Virus record (IMG/VR): IMGVR_UViG_3300031673_000002
Origin: an uncultured virus (IMG/VR IMGVR_UViG_3300031673_000002)
Lineage: Duplodnaviria; Heunggongvirae; Uroviricota; Caudoviricetes
Length of the DNA stretch: 23,392 nucleotides
Direction: 5' to 3' (one strand)
Part shown: positions 3,909 to 21,026 of the stretch, in pieces
Layout: each line of letters begins with the position of its first letter
Position numbering within the stretch: position 1 is the first letter of the stretch
Made by a program: the position numbers and the translations under genes
Notes under the pieces: model-generated
What the model was told of the DNA's origin: nothing
Database searches by the model: none
Seen by the model: the letters and a program-made list of their open reading frames with translations, nothing else

Positions 3909-3949
3909 GAGGTTGGTCACTCCTGGGGATAGGATGCGAAGACCTTGTA

Positions 3950-7831: not shown

Positions 7832-7896
7832 TAAGTCCTAACCGGCCCCGCCTGACCACGGGGTGGATACCCCATGCGCGTGAAGCCGGCTTCGGT

Positions 7897-7971
7897 TGGT
7901 GCTTCGGGCCGGACTCGAACCGGCGTCCCTGAATTTTCAGCCCAGTGCTAAACCACCTCAGCTACCGAAGC
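7897..7971 (-). tRNA. trnF: tRNA-Phe(GAA)
   Basis: Cloverleaf, loop CT-GAA-AA, CCA. Confidence 0.92.
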
Positions 7972-8015
7972 AAAACCCGAGTCTAGGCTCCGTCAGAGGA
8001 GCTTCGGTCGGGGGA

Positions 8016-8092
8016 TGGAGGCGACGATCGGGGTTGAACCGATGACCTACGGTTTTGCAGACCGGCGCTCTACCGCGCTGAGCTACGTCGCC
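8016..8092 (-). tRNA. trnC: tRNA-Cys(GCA)
   Basis: Loop CT-GCA-AA, U73, CCA. Confidence 0.92.
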
Positions 8093-8101
8093 AGAAACAT
8101 G

Positions 8102-8197
8102 ACACGAGCAAGTAATTGGTGCCGGGGGTAAAGAGCGGTAACCCGGTTGTGTGCGGTGTGGAAATTTGGGCTCTCTGCACCACCTTTCGGCTCGTGT
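8102..8197 (-). ncRNA. Y RNA-like, no tRNA module, with extra internal hairpin
   Basis: Terminal stem ACACGAGC-C-GA / CUUGCUCGUGU with bulged C (Ro60 site); internal CCGGGUUACC motif. Confidence 0.7.
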
Positions 8198-8200
8198 TGT

Positions 8201-8276
8201 TGGCAGGGGCAGTCGGGATCGAACCGACGACATCCAGAATCAGAATCTGGCGCTCTTCCATCTGAGCTATACCCCA
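8201..8276 (-). tRNA. trnQ: tRNA-Gln(CUG)
   Basis: Loop TT-CTG-AT, G73, U1:U72 mismatch, CCA. Confidence 0.9.
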
Positions 8277-8300
8277 TCAAAAGTTGAAGCAAAGAGCGAT

Positions 8301-8377
8301 TGGGGTGACCGACGAGAATTGAACTCGCGTACCCAGAGTCACAGTCTAGTGCCTAAAACCACTCGGCCACAGCCACC
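8301..8377 (-). tRNA. trnH: tRNA-His(GUG)
   Basis: Loop CT-GTG-AC, encoded G-1:C73, CCA. Confidence 0.93.
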
Positions 8378-8420
8378 ATACAGCTCTCTACTTCTCGTCG
8401 TTACTTTCTTCCGTACAGGA

Positions 8421-8525
8421 GGTTTGGGTGGAGGTTTGGAACACGATGCTCGATTCTTACCGAGCGGGATGGGTTTGGGTGGAGGTTTGGAACACGATGC
8501 TCGATTCTTACCGAGCGGGATGGGT
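8421..8525. repeat. exact tandem duplication of a 51-bp unit
   Basis: GGTTTGGGTGGAGGTTTGGAACACGATGCTCGATTCTTACCGAGCGGGATG at 8421-8471 and 8472-8522. Confidence 0.92.
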
Positions 8526-8611
8526 GGTGTAGTGGGAGGGACTCGAACCCCCAACCACATGGGCCTGCCGGGTTACAGCCGGTGACGTCTGCCAATCGAC
8601 GCTTCCACTAC
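8525..8611 (-). tRNA. trnY: tRNA-Tyr(GUA), atypical D arm
   Basis: Loop CT-GTA-AC, long variable arm, G1-C72, A73, CCA; A at position 8. Confidence 0.85.
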
Positions 8612-8640
8612 ATTGAGTGGCATCGTCTTGAGCTTCTAAC

Positions 8641-8714
8641 TGGCTGCGGGAGCAGGACTTGAACCTGCATGGCCGGTATCAAAAACCAGTATCCTACCAT
8701 TAGATGATCCCGCA
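8641..8714 (-). tRNA. trnQ: tRNA-Gln(UUG)
   Basis: Loop TT-TTG-AT, U1-A72, G73, CCA. Confidence 0.92.
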
Positions 8715-8744
8715 TCGAGGTGACGAAGCATCACGCGCGGGGTG

Positions 8745-8820
8745 TGGCAGGGGCATCGAGAGTCGAACTCGAAGCCTTCGGTTTTGGAGACCGGTGCTCT
8801 ACCAGTTGAGCTATACCCCT
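8745..8820 (-). tRNA. trnW: tRNA-Trp(CCA)
   Basis: Loop CT-CCA-AA, G73, CCA. Confidence 0.93.
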
Positions 8821-8937
8821 TCAGCCGCGCGGATGCTTGCGTTGGCCGAAGGGGCGCCAATAATGCTGCATAAACATCACGGCACCCTGCTTCGCAGCGG
8901 GACAAGTCGTCTTGGTGATGTTGGTTGCAGTCTTCAT
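8821..8937 (-). CDS. putative leader peptide MKTATNITKTTCPAAKQGAVMFMQHYWRPFGQRKHPRG (may start at ATG 8877)
   Basis: Stop abuts tRNA-Trp 5' end; MFMQHYW matches the amino acids of the downstream tRNA block; SD weak. Confidence 0.6.
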   Translation of the reverse strand: MKTATNITKTTCPAAKQGAVMFMQHYWRPFGQRKHPRG

Positions 8938-8997
8938 GGCGTGCTTCTTCTGGGTTTTGGTCGGGCACCCAGTTGGTGGTGCTCACGACTCCTGACG

Positions 8998-9027
8998 ATA
9001 GTATGCGAAGTCAGATTCAGAACGCAA
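8998..9027 (-). promoter_or_regulatory. putative sigma70-like promoter for the Trp-to-Met tRNA block
   Basis: TTGCGT-N18-TACTAT. Confidence 0.4.
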
Positions 9028-9048
9028 CTGGAAAATGCAGATCCGGGA

Positions 9049-9324
9049 TCACTTTTTCTGGGATCGGCGCTTCTCCAGGAACGCCATCGTCTCTTTCATC
9101 GTGTAGTGCCACTTCATCTTGACGTGGGCCATACCCATGGCGATACCCCAGGCGTTACGGAACCTGTAGTCCAGGCTGAGCGGGTCACCGGGCAGCATCT
9201 TCTTCCCCAGCATACCGCGCCAGTACCCCACCGCGTGCCATGGGACCAAGAGCAGGTAGCGTCGTCGCCACAAGCGTACAGGCCAGCGCTGGTTCTGGAA
9301 GCGGTTGTCTATTGGCGGAGTCAT
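9049..9324 (-). CDS. hypothetical basic protein (91 aa)
   Basis: GAGGT SD; ATGA overlap with upstream gene; 3' part of ORF 9049..9570. Confidence 0.65.
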   Translation of the reverse strand: MTPPIDNRFQNQRWPVRLWRRRYLLLVPWHAVGYWRGMLGKKMLPGDPLSLDYRFRNAWGIAMGMAHVKMKWHYTMKETMAFLEKRRSQKK

Positions 9325-9515
9325 GACACGCTTACCTCGTCGATGACCGAGAAGTAGCCCCGCAACTGCCAGGACTCTCGACCCGTTTTGTCCCTCTTGA
9401 CGAGGAAGATGTCGGTGCCGTGTTCGGTGCGTTGGTTGATGATCCGGCCTGTCAAGATCCACCCAAGGTACCGATGCGGGATTCCGACACGTCGGCCTAC
9501 GAGGTGGTGCTTCAC
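9321..9515 (-). CDS. hypothetical protein (64 aa)
   Basis: TAGTG coupling upstream and ATGA coupling downstream; AAGGA SD. Confidence 0.6.
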   Translation of the reverse strand: MKHHLVGRRVGIPHRYLGWILTGRIINQRTEHGTDIFLVKRDKTGRESWQLRGYFSVIDEVSVS

Positions 9516-9760
9516 TAAAGACCGTAGTCCTTAGCGTTGCACTCACAGATGGTGGTCTGCGGATGACCACAGTCGGAGCACCCGCCTACTTCCTTGTGTG
9601 GATCGAGTCCGAAGCGGACACACAGCAGCGTTGCTGAGGTGGACCCCAGGCCAAACAAGGTCGCCACATGCGACCAGAGCGGAGCGCGGTCAGTAGACCT
9701 CTGTCCAGCGTTTGCGACAGCGAAGGAAAGAAGGCTCTCGTCGTCACGGGTGTCGGCCAT
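9515..9760 (-). CDS. small phage-type protein with C-terminal Cys cluster (81 aa)
   Basis: AAGGT SD before ATG 9760; LWSHVATLFGLGSTSATLLCVRFGLDP then CxxC/CxC. Confidence 0.7.
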   Translation of the reverse strand: MADTRDDESLLSFAVANAGQRSTDRAPLWSHVATLFGLGSTSATLLCVRFGLDPHKEVGGCSDCGHPQTTICECNAKDYGL

Positions 9761-9774
9761 GACTGACCTTAAAG

Positions 9775-9804
9775 GAAAAGGCCCTGGTTGCCCAGGGCCT
9801 TTTC
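9775..9804 (-). terminator. intrinsic terminator after HNH gene (possibly bidirectional)
   Basis: GAAAAGGCCCTGG-GCAA-CCAGGGCCTTTTC followed by CTTT. Confidence 0.8.
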
Positions 9805-10404
9805 TCAGTCTTCCAGCTCGGTGTTCCAGTACGCAGCCGAAGCCGGATCGACGAAGGGCATCCACTCCTTGTAGGGCACCCTGCCCTTGCGAGGCAAGAC
9901 ACCGCTCCACTTGGGACGCACGGGCTCACGCAGGAGCTTCATGCGCGCCTCGCGGGGAGTACGTCCACCCTTCTTCAGGTTGCAGTCGATGCAGGAACAC
10001 ACGATGTTCTCCCACCGCGTCCTACCACCCTGCGTCTTAGGCACCACATGGTCGAGGTTGAGCTTCGACCGCGCGAACTCCTTTGCGCAGTACTGACAAG
10101 TGAAATCGTCACGGGCGTAGATGTTCTGACGACTGAACCGGATCTTGTTCCGGGGGATCTTGTCGAAGGTCTGGAGCACGAGGACACGGGGGATCTTCAA
10201 CACCGACTTCACGGTGCTGATGACGTCGTCGCCGTGGTCTGCCGCGAGAGCCGACCAGGAATCATAGTCGAAGGTCTGGTACTGGTCGTCGAGGGCGCGA
10301 GCGGCTCCGGAGTACAGTAGACCGAATGCACGCTCCACCCCCGTGACTGCTACCGGCTGGTAGCCACGGTTGAGGACAAGTACCTGTGCGTTCACGTTGG
10401 TCAT
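9805..10404 (-). CDS. HNH endonuclease (199 aa; VLVLN...P-type)
   Basis: VLVLNRGYQP N-terminus; FSRQNIYARDDFTCQYC, LNLDHVVP-x3-GG-x3-WENIVCSCIDCNLKKGGRTP; AAGGAG SD before ATG 10404. Confidence 0.93.
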   Translation of the reverse strand: MTNVNAQVLVLNRGYQPVAVTGVERAFGLLYSGAARALDDQYQTFDYDSWSALAADHGDDVISTVKSVLKIPRVLVLQTFDKIPRNKIRFSRQNIYARDDFTCQYCAKEFARSKLNLDHVVPKTQGGRTRWENIVCSCIDCNLKKGGRTPREARMKLLREPVRPKWSGVLPRKGRVPYKEWMPFVDPASAAYWNTELED

Positions 10405-10466
10405 AGCTGTACCCCTCTCCTTCAGGGTGTGAGACGACGGGTGTCGCCGGTTACTGACAGATGCGG

Positions 10467-10543
10467 TGGCGCTCCCAACATGACTCGAACATGTGGCCTT
10501 CAATTTAGGAAATTGACGCTCTATCCACCTGAGCTATAGGAGC
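10467..10543 (-). tRNA. trnR: tRNA-Arg(CCU)
   Basis: Loop TT-CCT-AA, A20, CCA. Confidence 0.92.
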
Positions 10544-10557
10544 ATGATGCATGATGA

Positions 10558-10634
10558 TGGTGCGCTCGGAAGGGCTTGAACCTTCGACCCCCAGCTTAGA
10601 AGGCCGGTGCTCTATCCAACTGAGCTACGAGCGC
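10558..10634 (-). tRNA. trnR: tRNA-Arg(UCU)
   Basis: Loop CT-TCT-AA, A20, CCA. Confidence 0.93.
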
Positions 10635-10828
10635 ATACCCTGACCGACAACGGTCAGAGGTCTTCGCTCGAAGCTCCTGTGGGGACAGACGCCGGGAGAC
10701 GCACACGGGTAGAGGACTTCCTGCTCCCCGTCGCCGCAAGGCTCGAACCGAGCACCAACTGGACCGCCGTCCCGCGCCCGACACACATGAGGTGCTTCCC
10801 AGATGTCTACGTTTTTCAGGTCACTCAT
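10625..10828 (-). CDS. putative leader ORF (67 aa) with AGG/CGA/AGA codons, ending inside tRNA-Arg(UCU)
   Basis: AAAGGA SD; stop is the tRNA U8-A9-G10; AGG at 10676-10678, AGA at 10661-10663. Confidence 0.45.
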   Translation of the reverse strand: MSDLKNVDIWEAPHVCRARDGGPVGARFEPCGDGEQEVLYPCASPGVCPHRSFERRPLTVVGQGMRS

Positions 10829-10840
10829 CACGGTCCTTTG

Positions 10841-10917
10841 TGGCGCGCACGGCAGGACTTGAACCTGCGGCCTCAACCTTCGGAAAGTCGCGCTCTATCC
10901 AACTGAGCTACGCACGC
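10841..10917 (-). tRNA. trnR: tRNA-Arg(CCG)
   Basis: Loop TT-CCG-AA, A20, CCA. Confidence 0.92.
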
Positions 10918-10966
10918 ATCATCGCTCCTTTCGAGGGCAGGAGCAACACCCTTTCTTGTCTATCTT

Positions 10967-11042
10967 TGGAGCAGGCGATGGGATTTGAACCCACGACATC
11001 CGACTTGGAAGGACGGCGCTCTACCAACTGAGCTACACCTGC
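10967..11042 (-). tRNA. trnG: tRNA-Gly(UCC)
   Basis: Loop CT-TCC-AA, U73, CCA. Confidence 0.93.
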
Positions 11043-11043
11043 A

Positions 11044-11118
11044 TGGTGCGTCTGGCCGGATTTGAACCGACGCGCATTCGGTTATGAGCCGACCGCTCTA
11101 CCGCTGAGCTACAGACGC
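11044..11118 (-). tRNA. tRNA-Met(CAU), non-initiator (Met or Ile2 unresolved)
   Basis: Loop CT-CAT-AA, G1-C72, A73, CCA. Confidence 0.9.
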
Positions 11119-11132
11119 TCTGACTTAGGATA

Positions 11133-11208
11133 TGGTGCGTCCAGCAGGATTTGAACCTGCGACCTATACCATGTCAAGGTAGCGCTCTACCAACTGAGCT
11201 ATGGACGC
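11133..11208 (-). tRNA. trnV: tRNA-Val(GAC)
   Basis: Loop TT-GAC-AT, CCA. Confidence 0.93.
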
Positions 11209-11213
11209 AAAGA

Positions 11214-11281
11214 GCGAGCAAGATGATGCCAGTGTGGGGTGTGTCAACCATTTGATAACCCACGTTCGGCGTTCGGCTCGC
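11214..11281 (-). ncRNA. short Y RNA-like (68 nt), no tRNA module
   Basis: GCGAGC-C-GA / CUUGCUCGC bulged-C stem; GUGGGUUAUC...CCCCAC inner stem. Confidence 0.75.
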
Positions 11282-11289
11282 GAACAAGC

Positions 11290-11427
11290 TGAGAGCAAGG
11301 AGTGCGGCGAGGGAGATTTTAACGTTGCTCTACCAACTGAGCTACGCCCCCAAAAGTGGGGACGACGGGACTCGAACCCGCGACCAACGGCTTGGAATGC
11401 AGATAACCCTCAGTGCTTCGGCTCTCA
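11290..11427 (-). ncRNA. yrlA: YrlA-type Y RNA (Ro60 stem plus permuted tRNA-like domain)
   Basis: GAGAGC-C-GA / CUUGCUCUC stem; T arm GCGGG-UUCGAGU-CCCGU, then closed acceptor-like stem, then D arm GCUC-AGUUGGUA-GAGC; no anticodon loop. Confidence 0.9.
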
Positions 11428-11447
11428 AACCTTTCAGAATCAAAGTG

Positions 11448-11524
11448 TGGTGCGTCCGGCAGGGGTCGAACCTGCGGCCTCTGGTTTCGTAGACCAGCGC
11501 TCTGTCCAACTGAGCTACGGGCGC
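11448..11524 (-). tRNA. trnR: tRNA-Arg(ACG)
   Basis: Loop CT-ACG-AA, A20, CCA. Confidence 0.93.
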
Positions 11525-11536
11525 ATGAAGAAAAGC

Positions 11537-11669
11537 GACGAGCAAGTAGGTGACCTGGATGTTTTACGCGCTCTACCGATTGAGCTATCCGGCATCTGGT
11601 TGCCGGAGAGGGACTCGAACCCCCAACCACGCGAGTATGATTCGATAATCCAGTATCTGTCGGCTCGTC
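11537..11669 (-). ncRNA. yrlA: YrlA-type Y RNA
   Basis: GACGAGC-C-GA / CUUGCUCGUC; T arm GGGGG-UUCGAGU-CCCUC, closed stem UCCGGCA/UGCCGGA, D arm GCUC-AAUCGGUA-GAGC. Confidence 0.9.
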
Positions 11670-11678
11670 AAAGAAATA

Positions 11679-11810
11679 GTGAGCAAGTAGTCGCGAAGGG
11701 GACGCTAAACTGGTGCGCTGCCGGACTGCGCCACACGGCATTACTGCCATGGCAGGATTTGAACCTGCGACCCCCAGTGACCTTTGGGTAACCCTAAGCT
11801 GTCGGCTCAC
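11679..11810 (-). ncRNA. yrlA: YrlA-type Y RNA
   Basis: GUGAGC-C-GA / CUUGCUCAC; T arm GCAGG-UUCAAAU-CCUGC, closed stem CAUGGCA/UGCCGUG, D arm GCGC-AGUCCGGCA-GCGC. Confidence 0.9.
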
Positions 11811-11836
11811 AAACCTCTGTGAAATCGTTAGAAGGT

Positions 11837-11873
11837 TAGGTGACGGGCTCCGACGAGCGAAGCCCGTCACCTA
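11837..11873 (-). other. 13-bp stem-loop after rsr stop (mRNA end protection or processing site; no U tract)
   Basis: TAGGTGACGGGCT (11837-11849) / AGCCCGTCACCTA (11861-11873). Confidence 0.6.
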
Positions 11874-11882
11874 TTCAGTCGG

Positions 11883-13595
11883 TCAGCCTCGCGCGAACGA
11901 GGCCATGACCTGGGGCGTGTCGGCAGAGAAGCCGACAACATCGAGCATCCCTGCATCGCTGGGATCAGCGATGCTGAATCCCGTCGAGGTCATGCCCATG
12001 ACGATGAGCTTCGCTGCCCGTCCCATCGTCTGCCGGTACTGGCGGAGTGCCTGCACCGGGTGAATGTTTCCTGCCCAGGTCTCGTTGTCGGTGATCACCA
12101 CGAAGGTGTCCACTTCCAGCTTCTTCTCGGTTGCGTACGTCATCGGAAGAGCGCAGTCGGTTCCGCCGAAGGGCAGACCGGACACCGAGCGGACAGCGTC
12201 CGTCAGTGACATGCGGTCGTGGAGCTTCAACTCGCTGACCCCTGCTCCAAAGCGCGGACCCCACTGTGAGCGGCCCGGGCCTCCCGTGAATCCGATGACG
12301 TGGTGTGCCGGCTCGACGTTCATGGTCACGAGGGCCATGGCAGCCGATGCTTCACGGGCAGACAAGGGCGAACCCAGGATCTGTGCTCCCATGGAGCCCG
12401 ACACGTCGAGTGCGAGCAGCCAGTTCTGGTTCGTGGGCTCGACTGCCTTGAACGCCAGGTAGAACGCCTTGTCCAGTGCGGACACAATGTTCCTGTCAGC
12501 CGTCCAGACCAGCTTGCCCTTGTGACCGTGACCCTGCTCATAGGTTCGGAGCGCCATCAAGATAGCCATCGGGTGGACCCGTGCCCTCGCCAACTCGTTC
12601 GCGTCGCACAGGCGTGCGGTCACGAACTTGGAAGCATCCGACAGGGGCTTGGTGAGCCCGATGCTCGACATCTTGCCGAGGTTCCGAATCATGGCCGTCA
12701 CGGGCATGCCCTTGCCAGCCATGAGCAGCGCCTCCCAGACCGCGAGGTCGTTGAGGTGCTCCGTCTTCACGCACTCACGGGGCAGACCGTACTCGACGAT
12801 CAGCTTGGCCGTGTCGCGCGCTGAGGTCGCCTCTCGTGCCTTCTCCACGCCCTCGACCAGCCGGGGCAGGTCGCGCTTGTAGAGCCGCTTGTAGGTCCCC
12901 TCAGACAGCACGGTGCCGTCCTTCGTCGTCCGGGTCACCTTGCGCTGAGCGAGCTTGCCGTCAGCGATGAGGTACCGGAACAAGGTCTCGTGACCCTTGG
13001 TCGCGGGCGCCGTGCCCTTCTTCGCACCCATGTGAGACTTGGCGAGCAAGTCCTTGTGGGTCCAGCCCTCGCGGGACTGGTACTTGAAGAGGTCGAGCGC
13101 CAGACGGTCGGGCGACTTCGCGTTGTAGTACGACGCCACGGCCTTCGCCGTGATGCGACCCCAGCCGCCGAGAGCCTGGCAGGCTTCCGCGAACTGGAAG
13201 ATGTGCGTACCGATACGGCAGACCTTGGGCACGGCGTCCTTAGCAGCCCGACGGGTGTCGAGGTCGCCCTGCTTCATGGCCAACGCCAACGCGAAGATGG
13301 CCGGGTCGTTCTTGGGCGCGAGGCCCTGCTCCGACACCTCGACGATGCGAGCCACGGCACGAGCACCATCGGCCTTGATGCAGCGGATCACGCACTCGGC
13401 GTTCTCGATGGTCAGCTTGCGCTCGGAAGCGTAGTACGTACCCGCCTCGGCACCGAGGATCAGGAAGCGGTCGAACCGCGTCCAGTCGTCAACGGCGAAC
13501 ACGAAACCACCAGCGTTGTTCTTGACCTGCGTCGAGCCGGGGATCTTCTCCCGCTGCGAGGTCTTCTTCGTGTTGAAGTGCTGTGCGTACGTCAT
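11883..13595 (-). CDS. rsr: Ro60 / TROVE-domain RNA-binding protein (Rsr)
   Basis: QVKNNAGGFVF, RFLILGAEAGTYY, KYQSREGWTHKDLL, AMIRNLGKMS, RVHP, vWA MIDAS DVSGSM, GGTDCALPM, TDNETW; AGAGGAG SD. Confidence 0.97.
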   Translation of the reverse strand: MTYAQHFNTKKTSQREKIPGSTQVKNNAGGFVFAVDDWTRFDRFLILGAEAGTYYASERKLTIENAECVIRCIKADGARAVARIVEVSEQGLAPKNDPAIFALALAMKQGDLDTRRAAKDAVPKVCRIGTHIFQFAEACQALGGWGRITAKAVASYYNAKSPDRLALDLFKYQSREGWTHKDLLAKSHMGAKKGTAPATKGHETLFRYLIADGKLAQRKVTRTTKDGTVLSEGTYKRLYKRDLPRLVEGVEKAREATSARDTAKLIVEYGLPRECVKTEHLNDLAVWEALLMAGKGMPVTAMIRNLGKMSSIGLTKPLSDASKFVTARLCDANELARARVHPMAILMALRTYEQGHGHKGKLVWTADRNIVSALDKAFYLAFKAVEPTNQNWLLALDVSGSMGAQILGSPLSAREASAAMALVTMNVEPAHHVIGFTGGPGRSQWGPRFGAGVSELKLHDRMSLTDAVRSVSGLPFGGTDCALPMTYATEKKLEVDTFVVITDNETWAGNIHPVQALRQYRQTMGRAAKLIVMGMTSTGFSIADPSDAGMLDVVGFSADTPQVMASFARG

Positions 13596-13643
13596 GGCAT
13601 TCTCCTCTGTAGGGCAATCATGGCCCTGTTTGTTAGAAAAGGC

Positions 13644-13707
13644 GAGAGCAAGTGAGGTGCTTCAGGGGGAAATCTTTACCTGGATAACCCTGGTGCGTTC
13701 GGCTCTC
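13644..13707 (-). ncRNA. short Y RNA-like (64 nt) immediately 5' of rsr
   Basis: GAGAGC-C-GA / CUUGCUCUC; CAGGGUUAUC...CCCUG inner stem. Confidence 0.78.
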
Positions 13708-13710
13708 AAA

Positions 13711-13806
13711 TGGTTGCGGGAGGAGGAATCGAACCTCCGTCGCTCGGGTTATGAGCCCAAGTTCAGTGCCCTAGCTTTCGATAGGGCTTCCAGCACCGTC
13801 CCCGCG
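13711..13806 (-). tRNA. initiator tRNA-fMet(CAU) with about 20-nt hairpin inserted in the D loop
   Basis: C1:A72 mismatch, GGG/CCC anticodon stem, loop CT-CAT-AA, normal T arm, CCA; 96 nt. Confidence 0.85.
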
Positions 13807-13807
13807 A

Positions 13808-13881
13808 TGGCTCAGGCAGAGGGATTTGAACCCCCGTCCCCGGGTTAACGGCCCGGTGCTACGCCTCTCAGCTATGCCTGA
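13808..13881 (-). tRNA. trnN: tRNA-Asn(GUU) with C33
   Basis: Loop CC-GTT-AA, U1-A72, G73, CCA. Confidence 0.9.
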
Positions 13882-13924
13882 TCAGTGCCTACTACGTCCT
13901 GATAGGTCTTCGAACTCCTGTGCA

Positions 13925-14001
13925 TGGTGCTCCCAGGGGGATTTGAACCCCCGTTGCCGCCGTGAGAGGGCGGTGTCCTTGGCCAGCTAGACGATAGGAG
14001 C
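13925..14001 (-). tRNA. trnE: tRNA-Glu(CUC)
   Basis: Loop CT-CTC-AC, CCA. Confidence 0.93.
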
Positions 14002-14004
14002 GTA

Positions 14005-14080
14005 TGGTGCTCTCGACGGGATTTGAACCCGTGTTGCCCGAGTGAAAACCGGGTCTCCTAGGCCACTAGAGGACGAGAGC
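14005..14080 (-). tRNA. trnE: tRNA-Glu(UUC)
   Basis: Loop TT-TTC-AC, CCA. Confidence 0.93.
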
Positions 14081-14126
14081 ATGTGCGTGGATTTCGCGTG
14101 CGTTCTTCTGCTTCTTCAGGTTCCAT
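14058..14126 (-). CDS. putative Glu-rich leader peptide MEPEEAEERTRNPRTCSRPLVA
   Basis: Strong AAGGAGG SD; five GAA in the first eight codons; runs into tRNA-Glu(UUC). Confidence 0.65.
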   Translation of the reverse strand: MEPEEAEERTRNPRTCSRPLVA

Positions 14127-14178
14127 CTCGTCCTCCTTCCTTTCCTTGTTGTTAAGGTAAAAGTTTTTACCTTAGCTG

Positions 14179-14254
14179 TGGTACCTGAAGCCGGGCTCGA
14201 ACCGACGACCTGCGGTATGTGACACCGCCGCTCTTCCAACTGAGCTATTCAGGC
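14179..14254 (-). tRNA. trnV: tRNA-Val(CAC)
   Basis: Loop GT-CAC-AT (G32), CCA. Confidence 0.9.
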
Positions 14255-14291
14255 AAGTGCTGCCTCGGACCTGTCCCCGAGGCGTGGACTG

Positions 14292-14366
14292 TGGAGCGGA
14301 TGAAGGGATTTGAACCCTCGACCTTCACGTTGGCAACGTAGTGCTCTACCACTGAGCTACATCCGC
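14292..14366 (-). tRNA. trnG: tRNA-Gly(GCC)
   Basis: Loop TT-GCC-AA, U73, CCA. Confidence 0.93.
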
Positions 14367-14371
14367 ATTTG

Positions 14372-14447
14372 TGGTCCGCCGGGGAAGGATCGAACTTCCG
14401 CATACGCCCTTATCAGGAGCGCCTCTTAACCACTTGAGTACCGGCGG
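14372..14447 (-). tRNA. trnI: tRNA-Ile(GAU)
   Basis: Loop CT-GAT-AA, A73, CCA. Confidence 0.9.
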
Positions 14448-14473
14448 TCGCCGGTAATGTCGCTGTCTTCCAT
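14426..14473 (-). CDS. putative leader peptide MEDSDITGDRRYSSG
   Basis: GAAGGTGA SD; stop in D loop of tRNA-Ile; ATT codon at base of a hairpin pairing with the tRNA 5' strand. Confidence 0.45.
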   Translation of the reverse strand: MEDSDITGDRRYSSG

Positions 14474-14498
14474 GTCGATCACCTTCTCTCTTTCCTGC

Positions 14499-14574
14499 TG
14501 GAGCCCGGAGCGGGAGTTGAACCCACGGCCTCCTGATTACGAAACAAGCGCTCTGCCGACTGAGCTATCCGGGC
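14499..14574 (-). tRNA. trnT: tRNA-Thr(CGU)
   Basis: Loop TT-CGT-AA, CCA. Confidence 0.9.
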
Positions 14575-14578
14575 GCAC

Positions 14579-14654
14579 TGGAGCCGCCAGCGGGGGTTGA
14601 ACCCGCGACCTCGTCCTTACCAAGGACGCACTCTTCCAACTGAGCTATGGCGGC
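14579..14654 (-). tRNA. trnT: tRNA-Thr(GGU)
   Basis: Loop TT-GGT-AA, CCA. Confidence 0.93.
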
Positions 14655-14660
14655 GTAGGG

Positions 14661-14737
14661 TGGTGGGTCGGGCGGGGCTCGAACCCGCGACCGATCGATT
14701 AAAAGTCGAATGCTGCTACCGCCTGAGCTACCGACCC
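14661..14737 (-). tRNA. trnK: tRNA-Lys(UUU)
   Basis: Loop CT-TTT-AA, CCA. Confidence 0.92.
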
Positions 14738-14784
14738 ACAGTCGTGGCGGTCTTGCGTTTGAGGCGGATCTCCGTGGTGCTCAT
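14728..14784 (-). CDS. putative Lys/Thr-rich leader peptide MSTTEIRLKRKTATTVGR
   Basis: Strong AGGAAGGAG SD; 5 Thr and 2 Lys in 18 codons; stop is U8-A9-G10 of tRNA-Lys(UUU). Confidence 0.62.
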   Translation of the reverse strand: MSTTEIRLKRKTATTVGR

Positions 14785-14802
14785 GATGTTCTCCTTCCTT
14801 TG

Positions 14803-14880
14803 TGGTCCGTCGAGGGGGAATCGAACCCCCATTCAGTCTGAGTAAGAGTCAGGTGCAAAGCCAGTTTTTGCTATCGACGG
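14803..14880 (-). tRNA. trnK: tRNA-Lys(CUU)
   Basis: Loop CT-CTT-AC, D stem GCAA/TTGC, CCA. Confidence 0.87.
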
Positions 14881-14927
14881 TCGTCATGTTGTGGACTGTC
14901 CAAGGTCGTCCCTACCTTCTGCTTCCG

Positions 14928-15004
14928 TGGTCCGAGAGGCAGGATTTGAACCTGCGGCCCCTGCACCCCCAGCGCAGTGCTCTGCCAAGCTGAGCTACTC
15001 TCGG
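14928..15004 (-). tRNA. trnP: tRNA-Pro(GGG)
   Basis: Loop CT-GGG-GG, C1-G72, A73, CCA. Confidence 0.92.
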
Positions 15005-15007
15005 TCG

Positions 15008-15083
15008 TGGTGGAGATGACAGGCTATGATCCTGCGACCTTCTCGATGCCATCGAGACGCTCTCCCAACTGAGCTACATCCCC
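15008..15083 (-). tRNA. trnA: tRNA-Ala(GGC), atypical T loop
   Basis: Loop AT-GGC-AT, G3.U70, A73, CCA; T loop ATCATAG. Confidence 0.88.
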
Positions 15084-15137
15084 GTATTGTCGCCCGTCTC
15101 TCCGAGCAGCCACGCCAGACAAAGACGGCGTTCCCTT

Positions 15138-15214
15138 TGGTGGAGTCGGGGACAGATCGAAGTCCCTACTTCGCCTTGCAAGGGCGGCGTTTTCGCCACG
15201 TAAACTACGACCCC
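15138..15214 (-). tRNA. trnA: tRNA-Ala(UGC), atypical T arm
   Basis: Loop CT-TGC-AA, G3.U70, CCA; T arm GGGAC-TTCGATCT-GTCCC. Confidence 0.86.
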
Positions 15215-15323
15215 AAAATGACCCTACTTCTTGCCTGGTGTGGGGAGGGTCACACCCACTTCCTGTTTTCCAGGGCTTCCACCTGGGAGCCCAATGCTTT
15301 CCTCCTTTTTGGGTAGGTGGTGA

Positions 15324-15402
15324 TGGCGGCACGTACGGGATTTGAACCCGTGATCTCCTCCGTGACAGGGAGGCGTCCTAAACCGAACTAGACCAACGCA
15401 CC
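15324..15402 (-). tRNA. trnD: tRNA-Asp(GUC)
   Basis: Loop CT-GTC-AC, G73, CCA. Confidence 0.93.
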
Positions 15403-15409
15403 AAATGAA

Positions 15410-15480
15410 CCTTCCCAGAACGTTTGAACCCCCTCGACCGTCTGACGGCCAAGGGGGTTCAAGTGAACCTGGGCGTCAGA
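15410..15480 (-). promoter_or_regulatory. attenuator-like RNA switch between tRNA-Pro(CGG) and tRNA-Asp
   Basis: 18-bp hairpin 15424-15462 mutually exclusive with pairing 15474-15480/15441-15447 plus 15464-15469/15456-15461; no clear U tract. Confidence 0.5.
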
Positions 15481-15488
15481 AAAGATGG

Positions 15489-15725
15489 TCAGCCAGTACC
15501 GGCTTCAACGCGACGATCATTCGCATTGATCGCGGTCGTCCCGAAAATCGAGGTGCGCTTGGCGCAGATGAAGCTCTCTGCTGATTTTTGGTCTCGGTGG
15601 AGGGAATCGAACCCCCGTTTTCTTGCTCCCGAAGCAAGCGGCCTACCTGACTGGCCCACACCGAGGCACGGGGAAGCAGAGAGCTTCACTGGCGACGGCT
15701 TTGTAGGTGGGGTCATGGTGAACAT
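15489..15725 (-). CDS. putative 78-aa leader ORF reading through tRNA-Pro(CGG)
   Basis: ORF track; GAGG SD; five Pro before the tRNA-Pro; stop lies 8 nt before the switch at 15480. Confidence 0.4.
   Translation of the reverse strand: MFTMTPPTKPSPVKLSASPCLGVGQSGRPLASGARKRGFDSLHRDQKSAESFICAKRTSIFGTTAINANDRRVEAGTG
15589..15665 (-). tRNA. trnP: tRNA-Pro(CGG)
   Basis: Loop TT-CGG-GA, C1-G72, A73, CCA. Confidence 0.9.
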
Positions 15726-15763
15726 CGAAATCGAGCCTCGGTGCGCAAGGTGCGCGTTGGTCT

Positions 15764-15797
15764 TCTATAGGTAGTGCAAAGCAGACGGGGAAGTCAA
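15764..15797 (-). promoter_or_regulatory. putative promoter of the main tRNA-rsr-Y RNA operon
   Basis: TTGACT at 15792-15797 with A-rich upstream tract; -10 region CTACCTATAGA is imperfect. Confidence 0.4.
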
Positions 15798-15882
15798 CCG
15801 GCTTCTTCGCAATTTCTTGATCTTTTTTTCATCGCCATAAGATCCGGGCACTTACGTGGATCCAATGTCATGGATCAGCGTA

Positions 15883-16134
15883 TCATACGGGCAGCCCTCT
15901 TCGTTCGATCTCAGCCCGTATCAGGCCGGGCGTGATTAAGTGCTTGATGCCGCCAGGGGCGTTGACGACGAAAGGGTGCCGCTTCTTGTGGGCCTTCGCC
16001 TGGAGCTTACGGAGCTTCTTCTCTGTCTTGCTTTGGAGGAAGGTAACGGTGTCATCAGCCGATGCTACTTTCTTGCCCCTGCCGACAGCAACCTGCTCGT
16101 GTATGGGCCGCGCACTGCTTGGCTCGGTAGTCAT
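15883..16134 (-). CDS. hypothetical basic protein (83 aa)
   Basis: ORF track; GGTGA SD; follows AAA ATPase gene. Confidence 0.6.
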   Translation of the reverse strand: MTTEPSSARPIHEQVAVGRGKKVASADDTVTFLQSKTEKKLRKLQAKAHKKRHPFVVNAPGGIKHLITPGLIRAEIERRGLPV

Positions 16135-16196
16135 CGTTTCACCACGGGGAGATACTCATACCGGTCCTCCGCAGATCACGAACACACGCTACGCCA

Positions 16197-18479: not shown

Positions 18480-18739
18480 GTCTTATCCCGGTAGGTGGTA
18501 TAGGACCGATGGTAGGCGCACCTTCCTCGCCTACCTGCGGTGGTCGTCCGCTCCGGCTCCTGCCCGCCGTGGGCTCGCGGTTTGGTGTTTGGTTACAGGC
18601 ATCAATCACCGCGAGGAGACAGCCCAAGGAAACGCTACCTCGTCGTGAGGTTGTTGTCAGCCCTCTTCTGTTGGCGTCGGGCGCCGCCATGAGCTTCTGC
18701 CGAATGCGTTTCACTTCGACATCCTTCCAGATAGGCGAC

Positions 18740-18856
18740 TCAATCTACCCAGCCGTCACCACGAAGGAGGTGCCACGTGCGGTGCTTGAGTACCTCAAGC
18801 ACCAAACGAAAGAGAGACGGGGCCTCGTACACGCCTGCGGTGGTGATTAGCTTCAC
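18740..18856 (-). CDS. small hypothetical protein MKLITTAGVYEAPSLFRLVLEVLKHRTWHLLRGDGWVD (38 aa)
   Basis: GAGGGA SD and TAGTG coupling with methyltransferase stop; 3' part of ORF 18740..18940. Confidence 0.55.
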   Translation of the reverse strand: MKLITTAGVYEAPSLFRLVLEVLKHRTWHLLRGDGWVD

Positions 18857-19467
18857 TATTCGTCCCTCACTCTCTGCATGCGATGGGCAACAGGCTCGGC
18901 GTGCGCCAGCACGGGAGCTTCCAGTCCCCACGCTGCCCAACCCGGCGCCGACTCGCGGGCGAACAACTCAATCCGAGGCCGGTCGCCAAAGAGGCGGACG
19001 ATGTGGTCACGGACGATAGCCGGCTTCTTGCTATGCTTGCCTGGCCTCTGGTGGGGCACGACCTGTGGTACCGCAGCGTCGAGCAGAGGGAACGGGCGGC
19101 CCCTCTTCTGCGGCGTCGCCAGGAGACAAAGCTCCGATGTCGGCTTCGTCCCCGTCGGCGGAACACCCTGCCCGTGGATGAGACCGCCGTCCCGCCGCGT
19201 CTTCACCCAGTTGAAGGCAACACCTCGGTAGCACAGGCCCCAAGCAGCTATGGCCTGGAAGGCAAGATCGAGTCTCGGGCACGTTGCCCAGACGAAGAAG
19301 GCTCCGCGCTTCGGGTCACGTAGAAGGCCCTTCATGTCCAGTGCGCAGATCGACTCCATCGACATGAGGTCGTAGTGCTTGCCTGCCGCAGCGTCCTTGT
19401 TCGGGTCGCCGTACATTGGCCATGCAGGGTCAGCATAGATGATGTCGTAGTGCGGACCCCAGGTCAC
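18856..19467 (-). CDS. MT-A70 family adenine methyltransferase
   Basis: YDIIYADPAW (DPPW-like), HYDLMS, FFVWAT, AWG-x2-Y-x5-WVK, HSKKP, RIELFARE-x2-PGW-x2-WG; likely GTG start 19467 (ORF track start 19494). Confidence 0.92.
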   Translation of the reverse strand: MTWGPHYDIIYADPAWPMYGDPNKDAAAGKHYDLMSMESICALDMKGLLRDPKRGAFFVWATCPRLDLAFQAIAAWGLCYRGVAFNWVKTRRDGGLIHGQGVPPTGTKPTSELCLLATPQKRGRPFPLLDAAVPQVVPHQRPGKHSKKPAIVRDHIVRLFGDRPRIELFARESAPGWAAWGLEAPVLAHAEPVAHRMQRVRDE

Positions 19468-19601
19468 GTCGTCACCGCTCCGATCAGAAGGCACGTCGAG
19501 AGGACAAAGCGCACTCTAATGGGCGGGACAGCAACGCACAGTAAAAAAATCCCAAGTACCAAAAACAACCAAGAAGCAAAGAGAAGATTCCGATGACCCA
19601 A
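19464..19601 (-). CDS. possible small membrane peptide (45 aa)
   Basis: TTG start with GAGG upstream, hydrophobic LLFASWLFLVLGIFLLCVAV, GTGA overlap with methyltransferase start. Confidence 0.3.
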   Translation of the reverse strand: MGHRNLLFASWLFLVLGIFLLCVAVPPIRVRFVLSTCLLIGAVTT

Positions 19602-19841
19602 GTATTCCGCCTCGCTGATCTGAAGAGACGCTGCAAGCGCTGCCACAGGATCGACTGCGAGGACCACTGCGTACAATGTGGGAAAGACCACGATCACGAC
19701 GACAACGATTCCGATGTCTGTCTCTCGTGTGAAGCAAAGAACGACCCAATCGTAGTCGACGACGACAACGACCTGTGGCAGCCACCGGTCTACCCCGCCG
19801 ACGTGCTCTACGTAGTCAAGCACTACCGCAAGCAACGGTGA
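19593..19841 (+). CDS. small Cys-rich putative zinc-binding protein (82 aa)
   Basis: CxxC-x4-C-x3-CxxC...CxxC pattern, GC3-rich codons, ends just before the 19856 hairpin. Confidence 0.6.
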   Translation: MTQVFRLADLKRRCKRCHRIDCEDHCVQCGKDHDHDDNDSDVCLSCEAKNDPIVVDDDNDLWQPPVYPADVLYVVKHYRKQR

Positions 19842-19851
19842 CCAACAGCGC

Positions 19852-19892
19852 AAAACGGGATGCGTAGCTGGATGAGCCAGCTACGCATCCCG
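19852..19892 (-). terminator. terminator of the Leu/Ser tRNA block
   Basis: 16-bp perfect stem 19856-19871/19877-19892 followed by TTTT on minus strand. Confidence 0.78.
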
Positions 19893-19900
19893 GATCGCTA

Positions 19901-19988
19901 TGGCGGAGGGTGAGGGATTTGAACCCCCGGTGCCGCGAAGCACAACCGATTTCAAGTCGGTCGCAATCAGCCTCTCTGCCAACCCTCC
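19901..19988 (-). tRNA. trnS: tRNA-Ser(UGA)
   Basis: Loop CT-TGA-AA, long variable arm, G73, CCA. Confidence 0.93.
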
Positions 19989-20011
19989 ATAAATGGCGGC
20001 TACGGTGAGAA

Positions 20012-20098
20012 TGGAGGAAAGCAGCGGGATCGAACCGCACACCCGAAGGTGCCACTTGATTAGCAATCAAGGCCAGGACCAGACCTGGGTTACTTTCC
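20012..20098 (-). tRNA. trnS: tRNA-Ser(GCU), atypical D arm
   Basis: Loop TT-GCT-AA, long variable arm, A8, extended D stem CCAGG/CCTGG, CCA. Confidence 0.85.
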
Positions 20099-20102
20099 AT
20101 AG

Positions 20103-20197
20103 TGGCGGAAGGAGAGGGGGTCGAACCCTCACGACCCCTTTCGAGGTCAGTCCGATTTCGAGTCGGGTGCCGGCGCCATCTATCGGCTGGTCCTTCC
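20103..20197 (-). tRNA. trnS: tRNA-Ser(CGA)
   Basis: Loop CT-CGA-AA, long variable arm, G73, CCA. Confidence 0.88.
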
Positions 20198-20201
20198 AAA
20201 A

Positions 20202-20296
20202 TGGCGGATGGAGCGAGGGTCGAACTCGCACGACCCCTTTCGAGGTCAGCCCGATTTCCAATCGGGTGCCGGCGCCAACTATCGGCTGGCCCATCC
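20202..20296 (-). tRNA. trnS: tRNA-Ser(GGA)
   Basis: Loop TT-GGA-AA, long variable arm, G73, CCA. Confidence 0.88.
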
Positions 20297-20329
20297 AGAG
20301 AGAGAGAGCAAGTACCTTCTGCTCTTTCA

Positions 20330-20416
20330 TGGTACTCAAAACAGGACTTGAACCTGCACGCCCTTTCGGGCACAACCACCTCAAGGTTGCGTGTCTACCA
20401 GTTCCACCATTTGAGC
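20330..20416 (-). tRNA. trnL: tRNA-Leu(GAG)
   Basis: Loop TT-GAG-GT, long variable arm, A73, CCA. Confidence 0.92.
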
Positions 20417-20433
20417 AAACCTAAAACTATACT

Positions 20434-20520
20434 TGGTGTAAGCGGGGGGACTTGAACCCCCAGGTGGGTTTCCCCTTCGGAACTTAAACCCGCTGCGTCT
20501 GCCAATTCCGCCACGCTCAC
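20434..20520 (-). tRNA. trnL: tRNA-Leu(UAA)
   Basis: Loop TT-TAA-GT, long variable arm, A73, CCA. Confidence 0.88.
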
Positions 20521-20525
20521 ATAGT

Positions 20526-20611
20526 TGGTACCCCGAGGGGGACTTGAACCCCCACGCCCTTTCGAGCACTGCCTTCTGAGGGCAGCATGTCTGCAATTCC
20601 ATCACCGGGGC
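20526..20611 (-). tRNA. trnL: tRNA-Leu(CAG)
   Basis: Loop CT-CAG-AA, long variable arm, A73, CCA. Confidence 0.9.
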
Positions 20612-20614
20612 ACA

Positions 20615-20699
20615 TGGTACCGAGAGGGGGACTTGAACCCCCACGTCAAAAGACACCGGGGTTTGAAGCCAGCGCGTCTGCCAATTCCGCCATCTCGGC
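20615..20699 (-). tRNA. trnL: tRNA-Leu(CAA)
   Basis: Loop TT-CAA-AC, long variable arm, A73, CCA. Confidence 0.9.
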
Positions 20700-20800
20700 A
20701 CAGGTGGTGGTACGTATTCAGTTGTGGTCACGATGGCTGGTCGTTTTCGGGAGCCTTGGTCCTCATCTTCAATTCGCGAATTGCGATCGTCCCTTCCCAG

Positions 20801-20840
20801 AAAGAGAAAAACCCCCTCGCGGTCTCACCGGAGGGGGTTT
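20801..20840 (-). terminator. attenuator terminator upstream of Leu/Ser tRNA block
   Basis: AAACCCCCUC-CGGU-GAG-ACCG-C-GAGGGGGUUU followed by UUCUCUUU. Confidence 0.85.
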
Positions 20841-20866
20841 GTGTCGTCTTGGCCTGAGATCAGTTC

Positions 20867-20938
20867 CTAGACACACCCCTCCGTCGTCGAGCTAAGGCTC
20901 GACAGCAGCAGGAGGGATGACAAGGAGCGGAAGTTCAT
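20867..20938 (-). CDS. Ser/Leu leader peptide MNFRSLSSLLLLSSLSSTTEGCV
   Basis: 13 consecutive Ser/Leu codons; stop at the end of the antiterminator 5' strand; SD weak. Confidence 0.78.
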   Translation of the reverse strand: MNFRSLSSLLLLSSLSSTTEGCV

Positions 20939-20966
20939 CGGTATGGGGCCTGGCAAAAGAGATAGA

Positions 20967-21026
20967 GAGAGCAAGTAGTTGGAACGGGGGATTCTTTGGA
21001 CAGATAACCCGAACCGCGCGGCTCTC
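20967..21026 (-). ncRNA. short Y RNA-like (60 nt) heading the Leu/Ser tRNA transcript
   Basis: GAGAGC-C-G / CUUGCUCUC stem (one mismatch above bulge); CGGGUUAUC...CCCG inner stem. Confidence 0.65.

Follow-up and report, generated by a model that had tools for sequence, protein, structure and literature searches.

Y RNA-like genes interspersed with the transfer RNA genes of an uncultured Ro60-encoding phage

Searches for bacterial Y RNAs are usually confined to the few kilobases around rsr, the gene for the Ro60 orthologue, and to our knowledge the Ro60 proteins of phages have no known role. Ro60 binds the bulged terminal helix of Y RNAs, the remainder of which tethers partners such as PNPase (PMC4201824). 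Y RNAs of the YrlA type and short Y RNAs have been published beside rsr, 22 phages included, and the published phage Ro60 loci include those of cluster C mycobacteriophages (Bxz1, ET08, and others), CcrColossus, and Bacillus phage G, with one YrlA per cluster C mycobacteriophage, 159 nucleotides (nt) upstream of the Ro gene, and three Y RNAs in the Caulobacter phage CcrColossus (PMC4201824 Table S2). Thermus phage phiLo has two Yrl RNAs, which are bound by Ro60 in a complex formed with host PNPase in vitro (PMC12135203). The origin of YrlA from dimeric transfer RNA (tRNA) transcripts, and the occurrence of Y RNAs next to tRNAs in some bacteria, have also been published (10.1101/312249). The survey of 2014 scanned no more than 4 kb from Ro60 and dropped matches overlapping tandem tRNAs (PMC4201824), a design that would hide Y RNA genes embedded in tRNA arrays. 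Here we describe seven Y RNA-like elements (Y-A to Y-G) in a 23,392-nt stretch of phage-like DNA (58.9% G+C; hereafter, the window) from an uncultured soil virus (IMG/VR IMGVR_UViG_3300031673_000002), in which they lie, all on the minus strand, alongside rsr and 35 tRNA genes. Their identification as Y RNA genes is well supported, and their dispersal through tRNA arrays recurs in large Ro60 phages, a layout that seems to be undescribed.

The seven elements had been listed in an earlier, sequence-only reading of the window, and all are present at those positions when the minus strand is read, the earlier coordinates being their low (3′) ends (Table 1). Every element starts with NNGAGC-C-G(A/C) and ends with (A/C)CUUGCUCNN. 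The closing helix so formed (NNGAGC-C-GA / UUGCUCNN) consists of 6 base pairs (bp), a bulged C, and two more pairs (G-U and A-U); GAGC-C-GA / UUGCUC is found in six of the seven elements, and GAGC-C-GC in Y-G. A second, inner GGG/CCC helix (xxGGG ... CCCxx) is present in each, its 5′ strand leading into UUAYC to give a GGGUUAYC motif, and the pairs flanking this helix vary compensatorily (CAGGG/CCCUG in F, GUGGG/CCCAC in D, GAGGG/CCCUC in C, CUGGA/UCCAG in B, and CCGGG/CCCGG in E). Elements D, E, F, and G are short hairpins of 60–92 nt. The motif GNCGAA(N0-1)G of the Ro60-binding 5′ strand (PMC4201824) is matched exactly by C, D, E, and F. The assembly itself was confirmed by contigs of three soil DNA runs, which are identical across all seven elements, with no informative variants; the many tRNA cross-matches and joints in these runs stem from other organisms.

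Only D, E, F, and G were used to build a covariance model (R1; alignment A3, with 67 positions and 13 base pairs), which was run with filters off over both strands of all 23,392 bases. R1 recovered the four seeds together with A, B, and C at E values from 3.9e-5 to 2.7e-4, treating the tRNA-like modules of the latter as loop insertions, and gave no further site in the window below E 0.5; the sequence-only reading had proposed a new model as a check, and the one made from the four short elements found the other three independently. CTTGCTC occurs 16 times in the window, against 4.49 ± 2.25 in shuffled sequences (16 reached by none of 100 shuffles), and the composite GAGCCG-N20-50-CTTGCTC occurs three times, against 0.02 expected, two of the three being F and G. 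GAGCCGA by itself is not enriched in the window (10 against 6.26; reached by 12 of 100 shuffles). The third composite site (3346-3380, plus strand), inside an ArdA-like open reading frame (ORF), receives no support from R1 and looks like a chance occurrence.

The Ro60 gene reported in the sequence-only reading is genuine. Its product has the TROVE domain followed by the Ro60 von Willebrand factor A-type (vWA) domain and matches over its full length the solved RO60 structure 9nen (E 1.9e-119; residues 21-567 to 9nen_A), Xenopus Ro (1yvp; 1.2e-115), and Deinococcus Rsr (2nvo). The protein is less than 60% identical to its counterparts in all 356 matching phage records (tblastn), which come mostly from Mycobacterium and Streptomyces phages. 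Neither a megablast search of 11200-13720 against GenBank phages nor a scan of IMG/VR with Ro60 peptides returned a relative, close in the former case or any in the latter.

Elements A, B, and C contain, as had been noticed from the sequence, a permuted tRNA-like module. Their alignments to the Rfam YrlA model (RF02553) span model positions 23-86/87 of 114 and cover, in this permuted order, the T-arm, an acceptor-like stem-loop, and the D-arm, all enclosed by a stem; the scores are given in Table 1. Pairwise identity among the three modules is 61-66%, in keeping with the divergence ascribed to them. The acceptor-like stems are fully paired in all three, and are capped by GUAA in A, ACUUUU in C, and ACCAGA in B. 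In Y-B, the 3′ strand of this stem is followed by a discriminator A and CCA (11600-11597) and then by a 2-nt spacer, a layout that is the same as that of the junction between two tandem tRNA genes of this phage, and its variable-region/T-arm stretch is identical at 23 of 23 positions to the phage tRNA-Tyr. We examined 19 YrlA-type elements in all, namely the three of the window, one in a related metagenome contig (L143), and 15 in the tRNA arrays of giant phages described below: 15 have 7/7-bp acceptor-like stems, and in seven NCCA directly follows the acceptor 3′ strand, against about 0.3 expected by chance by our own estimate of 1 in 64 each, although several elements are orthologous to one another.

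On the related contig (L143; 1384 nt), the rsr gene is present as its last 303 codons, and the encoded Ro60 shares 80% identity with that of the window. Downstream of rsr, a hairpin, a YrlA, tRNA-Arg(ACG), a Y element, and the start of another follow in the order found in the window. Y-A has no counterpart in this contig. Its YrlA is the orthologue of Y-B (89% identical), and the differences between the two lie mostly in the T stem and the acceptor-like stem and are compensatory: the acceptor stem has been largely replaced (UCCGGCA/UGCCGGA in one and CUCCCCA/CGGGGAG in the other, with six of seven pairs kept in L143), while no change affects the Ro helix, the D and T loops, or ACCA. In the Y element after tRNA-Arg, the closing helix reads GAGGAC-C-GA / UUGUCCUC, with two pairs swapped compensatorily.

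To look beyond the window, the strict pattern GAGCCGA-N3-25-GGGTTAYC-N8-38-CTTGCTC was used, which returned 22 IMG/VR contigs, and R1 gave 39 matches in these 22 loci. A looser two-motif pattern was rejected in its favour; it hit at least 118 IMG/VR stretches, most of them probably by chance, with only 15 R1 matches at E ≤ 0.01 among the first 100 loci. In the alignment of the IMG/VR matches (36 distinct sequences), 96.1% of cells are paired and 10 of the 13 pairs have changed on both sides, a score reached by none of 500 shuffles, and slid controls were paired at just 34.5-51.3%. Helix 1 is 98.3% paired with six of eight pairs covarying, and helix 2 is 92.7% paired with four of five covarying. 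Both the bulged-C closing helix and the GGGUUAYC motif are kept, with compensatory changes, across phages of 33-65% G+C. These features, together with the inner GGG/CCC helix and a length of 56-93 nt, define a short Y family to which D, E, F, and G belong, and which has no match in Rfam; a match of Y-D to the nematode sRNA family RF01656 (14.6 bits, E 4.8) is insignificant.

A Ro60 homologue (38-48% identical) lies within 10 kb in 14 of the 22 loci, and in these all 26 R1 matches are on the Ro60 strand, 17-2784 nt from the Ro60 gene; one locus (L136) has five tandem Y copies upstream of Ro60. A tRNA on the same strand is found within 23 nt for 14 of the 39 R1 matches, the distance being 0-9 nt in many cases. 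Two small Ro60 loci (L132 and L139, ~9850-10210) have the order Y RNA, tRNA-Ala, Y RNA, Ro60, with gaps of 1-8 nt between Y RNA and tRNA, which shows that the butt-joined arrangement is not restricted to giant phages.

Of the eight loci in which no Ro60 lies nearby, six are tRNA arrays (19-54 tRNAs per 17-20 kb). With filters off, R1 gave 24 matches in five tRNA-array loci, all on the tRNA strand (six each in L119 and L140, five each in L135 and L122, and two in L134); the short ones lie 4-23 nt from tRNAs, the long ones occupy gaps between tRNAs with 3-8 nt left over, and 12 of the 14 long ones are visibly of the YrlA type. Four of the arrays (32-54 tRNAs) belong to complete phage genomes of 435-480 kb, three with terminal repeats. 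These four phages do encode a Ro60 (closest, 44-53% identical to that of the window), at least 111 kb from the arrays, so that the linkage of the Y family to tRNA genes is independent of adjacency to rsr. Within 4 kb of these four Ro60 genes, R1 gave one marginal match (E 0.049) and the Rfam YrlA model none. In the fifth giant-phage record (277 kb, 60% complete), no Ro60 was found. The layout of the window, with rsr among tRNA blocks, looks like an intermediate. The sequence-only reading had called the number and dispersal of the elements unusual; seven does exceed the published phage counts of one, three, and two, but the five copies in L136 and the 5-6 copies in four giant-phage arrays make this a recurrent pattern rather than a singularity.

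In the window, ARAGORN called 35 tRNA genes in four blocks, all on the minus strand, and none over the Y elements; 34 of them reach the gathering score of the Rfam tRNA model, and the remaining one, tRNA-Tyr, scores 34.4 bits. All 35 encode CCA, and many are spaced by 1-6 nt. Y-E has tRNA-Gln(CUG) 5 nt before it and tRNA-Cys 11 nt after it, the 3′ end of Y-D is 5 nt before tRNA-Val, and, around tRNA-Arg(ACG), Y-C starts 21 nt after and Y-B ends 13 nt before the tRNA. A, B, and C are 72-592 nt downstream of the rsr stop codon, within the working criterion of ~4 kb in PMC4201824; the gap of 72 nt between rsr and Y-A holds a 16-bp hairpin. Y-F, at the 3′ end of the 15-tRNA block, precedes the rsr start codon by 48 nt, and a ribosome-binding sequence, GAGGAG, lies in this gap. 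Y-G lies 248 nt after an ORF and 267 nt before tRNA-Leu of the Leu/Ser block. Placement as far as ~7.4 kb from rsr was borne out, Y-G being 7.37 kb upstream of its start codon, hence beyond the ~4 kb criterion, and Y-E 3.7 kb downstream of its stop codon. The accompanying claim that every tRNA block carries one such element holds for three blocks but only loosely for the fourth, from which Y-G is separated by 267 nt that include a terminator-like hairpin.

Table 1. Features of the window, with positions counted from its first letter (MFE, minimum free energy; bits and E values of R1 or Rfam models as indicated)
Feature	Position	Strand	Description
Y-A	11679..11810	-	YrlA type; R1 E 2.7e-4; RF02553 35.7 bits at 11711-11776; acceptor-like stem 7/7 bp, GUAA loop
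Y-B	11538..11668	-	YrlA type; R1 E 3.9e-5; RF02553 40.2 bits; acceptor-like stem 7/7 bp
Y-C	11291..11426	-	YrlA type; R1 E 2.2e-4; RF02553 44.2 bits at 11322-11389; acceptor-like stem 7/7 bp, 6-nt loop
Y-D	11214..11281	-	Short hairpin; R1 76 bits (training sequence); MFE z -2.54
Y-E	8104..8195	-	Short type with extra 31-nt insertion; R1 59.6 bits (training sequence); MFE z -2.78
Y-F	13644..13707	-	Short type; R1 74.6 bits (training sequence)
Y-G	20967..21026	-	Short type; R1 63.7 bits (training sequence); MFE z -2.57; 5′ strand GAGCCGC, not GAGCCGA
rsr (Ro60 orthologue, 570 amino acids)	11883..13595	-	Pfam TROVE (PF05731) 9e-45; vWA_Ro60 (PF25045) 3.6e-63; PHROG 850, RNA-binding protein, 4e-87
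Post-rsr hairpin	11837..11873	-	16 bp, directly after rsr stop and before Y-A; kept in relative L143 (930-973)
tRNA block 1	7756..8820	-	8 tRNAs; contains Y-E (ARAGORN, Rfam tRNA)
tRNA block 2	10467..11524	-	7 tRNAs; interleaved with Y-D and Y-C; Y-B and Y-A just upstream
tRNA block 3	13808..15665	-	15 tRNAs; then tRNA(CAU)-like gene, then Y-F
tRNA block 4	19901..20699	-	5 tRNAs called and 3 tRNA-Ser-like genes missed by ARAGORN
Terminator-like GC hairpin and U tract	20797..20840	-	Between Y-G and block 4; from sequence and MFE fold; not listed by simple terminator scan
Mini-hairpin (uncertain)	20304-20326	-	23 nt, Y-type closing helix with bulged A (AGAGC-A-GA ... UUGCUCU); R1 11.2 bits, E 0.52, not significant

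We consider it probable that the seven elements are true Y RNAs that bind the phage Ro60, are co-transcribed with the tRNAs, and are freed by tRNA-processing enzymes. The elements, their common structure and its covariation, their linkage to tRNA genes and Ro60, and their recurrence in other phages are observed, and on this basis we infer expression, processing, Ro60 binding, and downstream function. The terminal bulged-C helix of each Y RNA would bind the phage's own Ro60. The Y genes, which show no evident promoters of their own, would be made as parts of polycistronic precursors from the tRNA/rsr strand, and their ends would be set by maturation of the flanking tRNAs, that is, by RNase P cleavage where the downstream tRNA begins and by 3′ trimming of the upstream one. 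Y-B, with its acceptor-like stem and encoded A-CCA, is probably cut by RNase P to yield a tRNA mimic in two pieces that carries a CCA end; Y-C is perhaps opened as well, and Y-A, with a GNRA-type loop, may stay whole. Support for such processing comes from the fully paired 7-bp acceptor-like stems of A, B, and C, because PMC4201824 names this feature as what determines cleavage of the Mycobacterium smegmatis YrlA by RNase P. Among the YrlA RNAs studied, that of M. smegmatis alone has an acceptor stem of 7 bp; RNase P cleaves it, CCA is added to it in vivo, and it is cut together with YrlB from one precursor (PMC4201824). Once bound, the Y RNA would gate the Ro60 ring, and different inner modules could recruit different partners, most plausibly a host 3′-5′ exoribonuclease (e.g., PNPase) or tRNA-binding enzymes. 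The outcome would be a set of Ro60 ribonucleoproteins (RNPs) produced in step with the phage tRNA supply. Exonuclease recruitment and tRNA surveillance are putative functions of such RNPs; the sequence-only reading had suggested tRNA quality control or repair, decoys for host tRNases, or the tethering of Ro60 to precursors.

Several results weigh against this interpretation. The Rfam YrlA search proposed in the sequence-only reading did give partial matches to A, B, and C, but all are below the gathering score of 69 and cover the tRNA-like module alone. The Rfam Y_RNA model (RF00019) has no match at E up to 10 in 11205-11830 or 13635-13715, which is weak evidence against relatedness given a model about twice as long as the short elements. 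In the GNCGAA motif region, A and B read GCCGACAG (one change) and G reads GCCGCGCG. Fitting of the IMG/VR alignment (A4) to the model biases it in favour of the structure, and R1 E values are rough; moreover, R1 found nothing in Mycobacterium phage Asterius and Gordonia phage Cashline, as the model covers one subfamily only. As for expression, a consensus promoter scan of the window returned two sites, both on the plus strand, against 3.5 expected, with none useful on the minus strand, and because of this the case for co-transcription with the tRNAs comes from strand and spacing only. Y-G is not contiguous with a tRNA and is followed by a terminator-like hairpin. The sequencing runs listed with the window DNA include no RNA run that could bear on expression, RNA ends, or Ro60 binding. 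Finally, a check of the contig for rtcB, PNPase, or other RNA-repair genes had been proposed, and no RNA ligase, cyclase, kinase, or other gene of this kind was found within the window.

The tight packing of Y elements and tRNAs could also be explained if the elements act in cis, as Ro60 landing pads kept in the tRNA precursors that bring in Ro60 with a bound nuclease or chaperone, with Y-F serving as a leader for feedback on rsr. Such a role, which we regard as rather unlikely, would suit the very short spacers between Y elements and tRNAs (5-21 nt in the window and 0-9 nt in many IMG/VR cases) and the position of Y-F just ahead of the rsr start codon and its GAGGAG. However, tRNA maturation must cut on both sides of E and D, which would free them, and known Y RNAs accumulate free, as exemplified by the processed YrlA and YrlB of M. 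smegmatis (PMC4201824); feedback on rsr as a general role is further contradicted by the same elements lying far from rsr in giant phages. In a reading that we think quite improbable, the three elements with a likeness to the elbow and acceptor end of tRNA act as decoys. They would sequester the defence nucleases with which a host cleaves tRNAs, or other factors that bind tRNA, and so protect the tRNA supply of the phage, and Ro60 would do no more than stabilize them. Phage tRNA genes are commonly read as a counter to host tRNA depletion, and the location of the Y elements among such genes, along with the identity of the T-arm region of Y-B to the phage tRNA-Tyr, would fit that role. Yet the permuted module has no anticodon loop, the target of known anticodon nucleases, four of the seven elements have no tRNA-like part at all, and what is invariant in the family is the Ro60 helix, not the tRNA module.

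It is also conceivable, though to us far-fetched, that the elements are not Ro60 ligands but spacer hairpins or decayed tRNA-dimer junctions that aid the folding or processing of tRNA precursors. They do occupy the spacers between tRNAs, dimeric tRNA transcripts have been proposed as the source of the YrlA type (10.1101/312249), and tandem tRNAs can mimic YrlA in searches, as PMC4201824 warns. Against this stand the lack of any ARAGORN tRNA call over the elements, the conservation of the bulged-C closing helix and GGGUUAYC with compensatory changes across phages of widely different base composition (33-65% G+C), and the fact that, outside tRNA arrays, the family always adjoins a Ro60 gene on the same strand.

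Beyond the interpretation of the elements as processed Y RNAs that bind the phage Ro60, a bolder proposal may be put forward, which we hold to be unlikely in its entirety. The tRNA array would be a dedicated production line for Y RNAs in large Ro60 phages, and the Ro60-Y RNPs would be part of a tRNA-supply module, not of general RNA decay. YrlA mimics opened by RNase P, with a 7-bp stem and CCA, would dock Ro60 on tRNA-handling enzymes, for which the CCA-adding enzyme, synthetases, elongation factor, or tRNA nucleases would be candidates, and the arrays would represent a living intermediate of the birth of Y RNAs from tandem tRNAs. If true, such docking would enable the phage to proof-read its 35-50 tRNAs, to protect them, or to time their use.

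Several other features of the tRNA blocks and the remainder of the window were recorded. The post-rsr hairpin looks like a processing or stability element rather than a terminator, because it has no U tract. The mini-hairpin of block 4 could represent a Ro60 site in minimal or decayed form; its neighbours are tRNA-Leu(GAG) and the first of the tRNA-Ser-like genes. The three consecutive tRNA-Ser-like genes themselves (20020-20292, minus strand) have anticodons GGA, CGA, and GCU as judged by eye, odd D regions, and CCA ends; ARAGORN makes no call, and two of them have weak matches to the Rfam tRNA-Sec-type models (32 and 20.9 bits). Between tRNA-Asn and Y-F, a cloverleaf with a CAU anticodon (13712-13806, minus strand) has a D arm greatly enlarged by an extra hairpin and a 3′ ACCA, and is called by neither ARAGORN nor Rfam. 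The 148-nt spacer between tRNA-Tyr and tRNA-His (8377-8524, minus strand) contains two direct copies of a ~52-nt unit, each with a small hairpin (CUCGGUAAGAAUCGAG). Two long spacers within tRNA blocks (10635-10840 and 15403-15588, minus strand) have very stable folds (MFE -82.9 and -78.9 kcal/mol), the latter ending in a long GC hairpin, and could represent additional non-coding RNAs or terminators. The window also encodes two ArdA-like proteins, a helicase with a homing-endonuclease-like insert, HNH endonucleases, an AAA ATPase, for which there are only weak partial matches among GenBank phages, and an MT-A70 methyltransferase. The two ArdA-like anti-restriction genes adjoin each other (2788-3920, minus strand; 1.9e-9 and 1.3e-32). 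The helicase (4252-7008, minus strand; 918 amino acids; ResIII and Helicase_C) may contain an intein, as suggested by LAGLIDADG/Hom_end matches at residues 369-445. Elsewhere, a group I intron (85.2 bits, above the gathering score) was found at 650-866 on the minus strand of L147, ~3 kb from the Ro60 gene of a complete 435-kb phage.

In the portions of the literature that were searched (including PMC7824862, PMC9569102, and PMC8190616), we found no account of Y RNA genes as units in phage tRNA arrays, of Y genes more than 100 kb from rsr in giant phages, or of the short GGGUUAYC family and a CCA encoded in an acceptor loop, parts of which reviews may cover. The results add a well-defined Y RNA subfamily, absent from Rfam and widespread in phage contigs, and reveal a coupling of Y and tRNA genes so tight that tRNA processing must define the Y ends. 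In giant phages, the Y genes have left rsr and reside in the tRNA arrays, from which a search rule follows for overlooked Y RNAs, namely to inspect tRNA arrays. A concrete maturation model is offered, and the CCA encoded after a 7-bp acceptor stem bears on the published origin of Y RNAs from tandem tRNAs. The function of phage Ro60 would thereby be tied to the tRNA economy of infection.

Among known systems, elements A, B, and C resemble YrlA (RF02553) of Salmonella Typhimurium and M. smegmatis in that the T-arm precedes the D-arm, in the position beside rsr, and, exactly in C but with one change in A and B, in the GNCGAA-type 5′ strand of the stem that binds Ro60 (PMC4201824; 10.1101/312249), and they share the 7-bp acceptor-like stem with the M. 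smegmatis RNA. They differ in that the elements of the window conserve both strands of the Ro60 helix, whereas the Salmonella and M. smegmatis RNAs are recognizable in the 5′ strand only, according to PMC4201824; in addition, one copy encodes A-CCA in the acceptor loop, and the copies are interleaved with tRNA genes. For the short elements D, E, F, and G, the counterparts in role would be YrlB, known from Salmonella and M. smegmatis, and Yrn2 of Deinococcus, smaller second Ro60-bound RNAs that are encoded alongside YrlA or Yrn1, are released from a shared precursor, and form long hairpins with a small loop (PMC4201824), a likeness drawn from description, not sequence; unlike these, they constitute a conserved family of their own, marked by GGGUUAYC and GGG/CCC, in 22 IMG/VR contigs. 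Metazoan Y RNAs (RF00019) and nematode stem-bulge RNAs show the same architecture of an end-to-end terminal helix with a bulged C and both strands conserved, followed by a second helix and a loop, and the Ro60 of the window matches RO60 and Xenopus Ro as strongly as it does bacterial Rsr. A G-rich/UUAU motif that opens the upper stem of some vertebrate Y RNAs may be similar to that of the window elements. Unlike metazoan Y RNAs, the genes of the window are not Pol III genes and have no oligo-U tail. GOLLD in the tRNA arrays of Mycobacterium is likewise a structured non-coding RNA that travels with tRNA arrays of mobile elements, according to PMC9569102, but is an unrelated RNA. With the published phage Ro60 loci, finally, the window shares a phage-encoded Ro60 with adjoining Y RNA-like genes, and it differs from them in having seven of these, as far as 7.4 kb off and among tRNAs.

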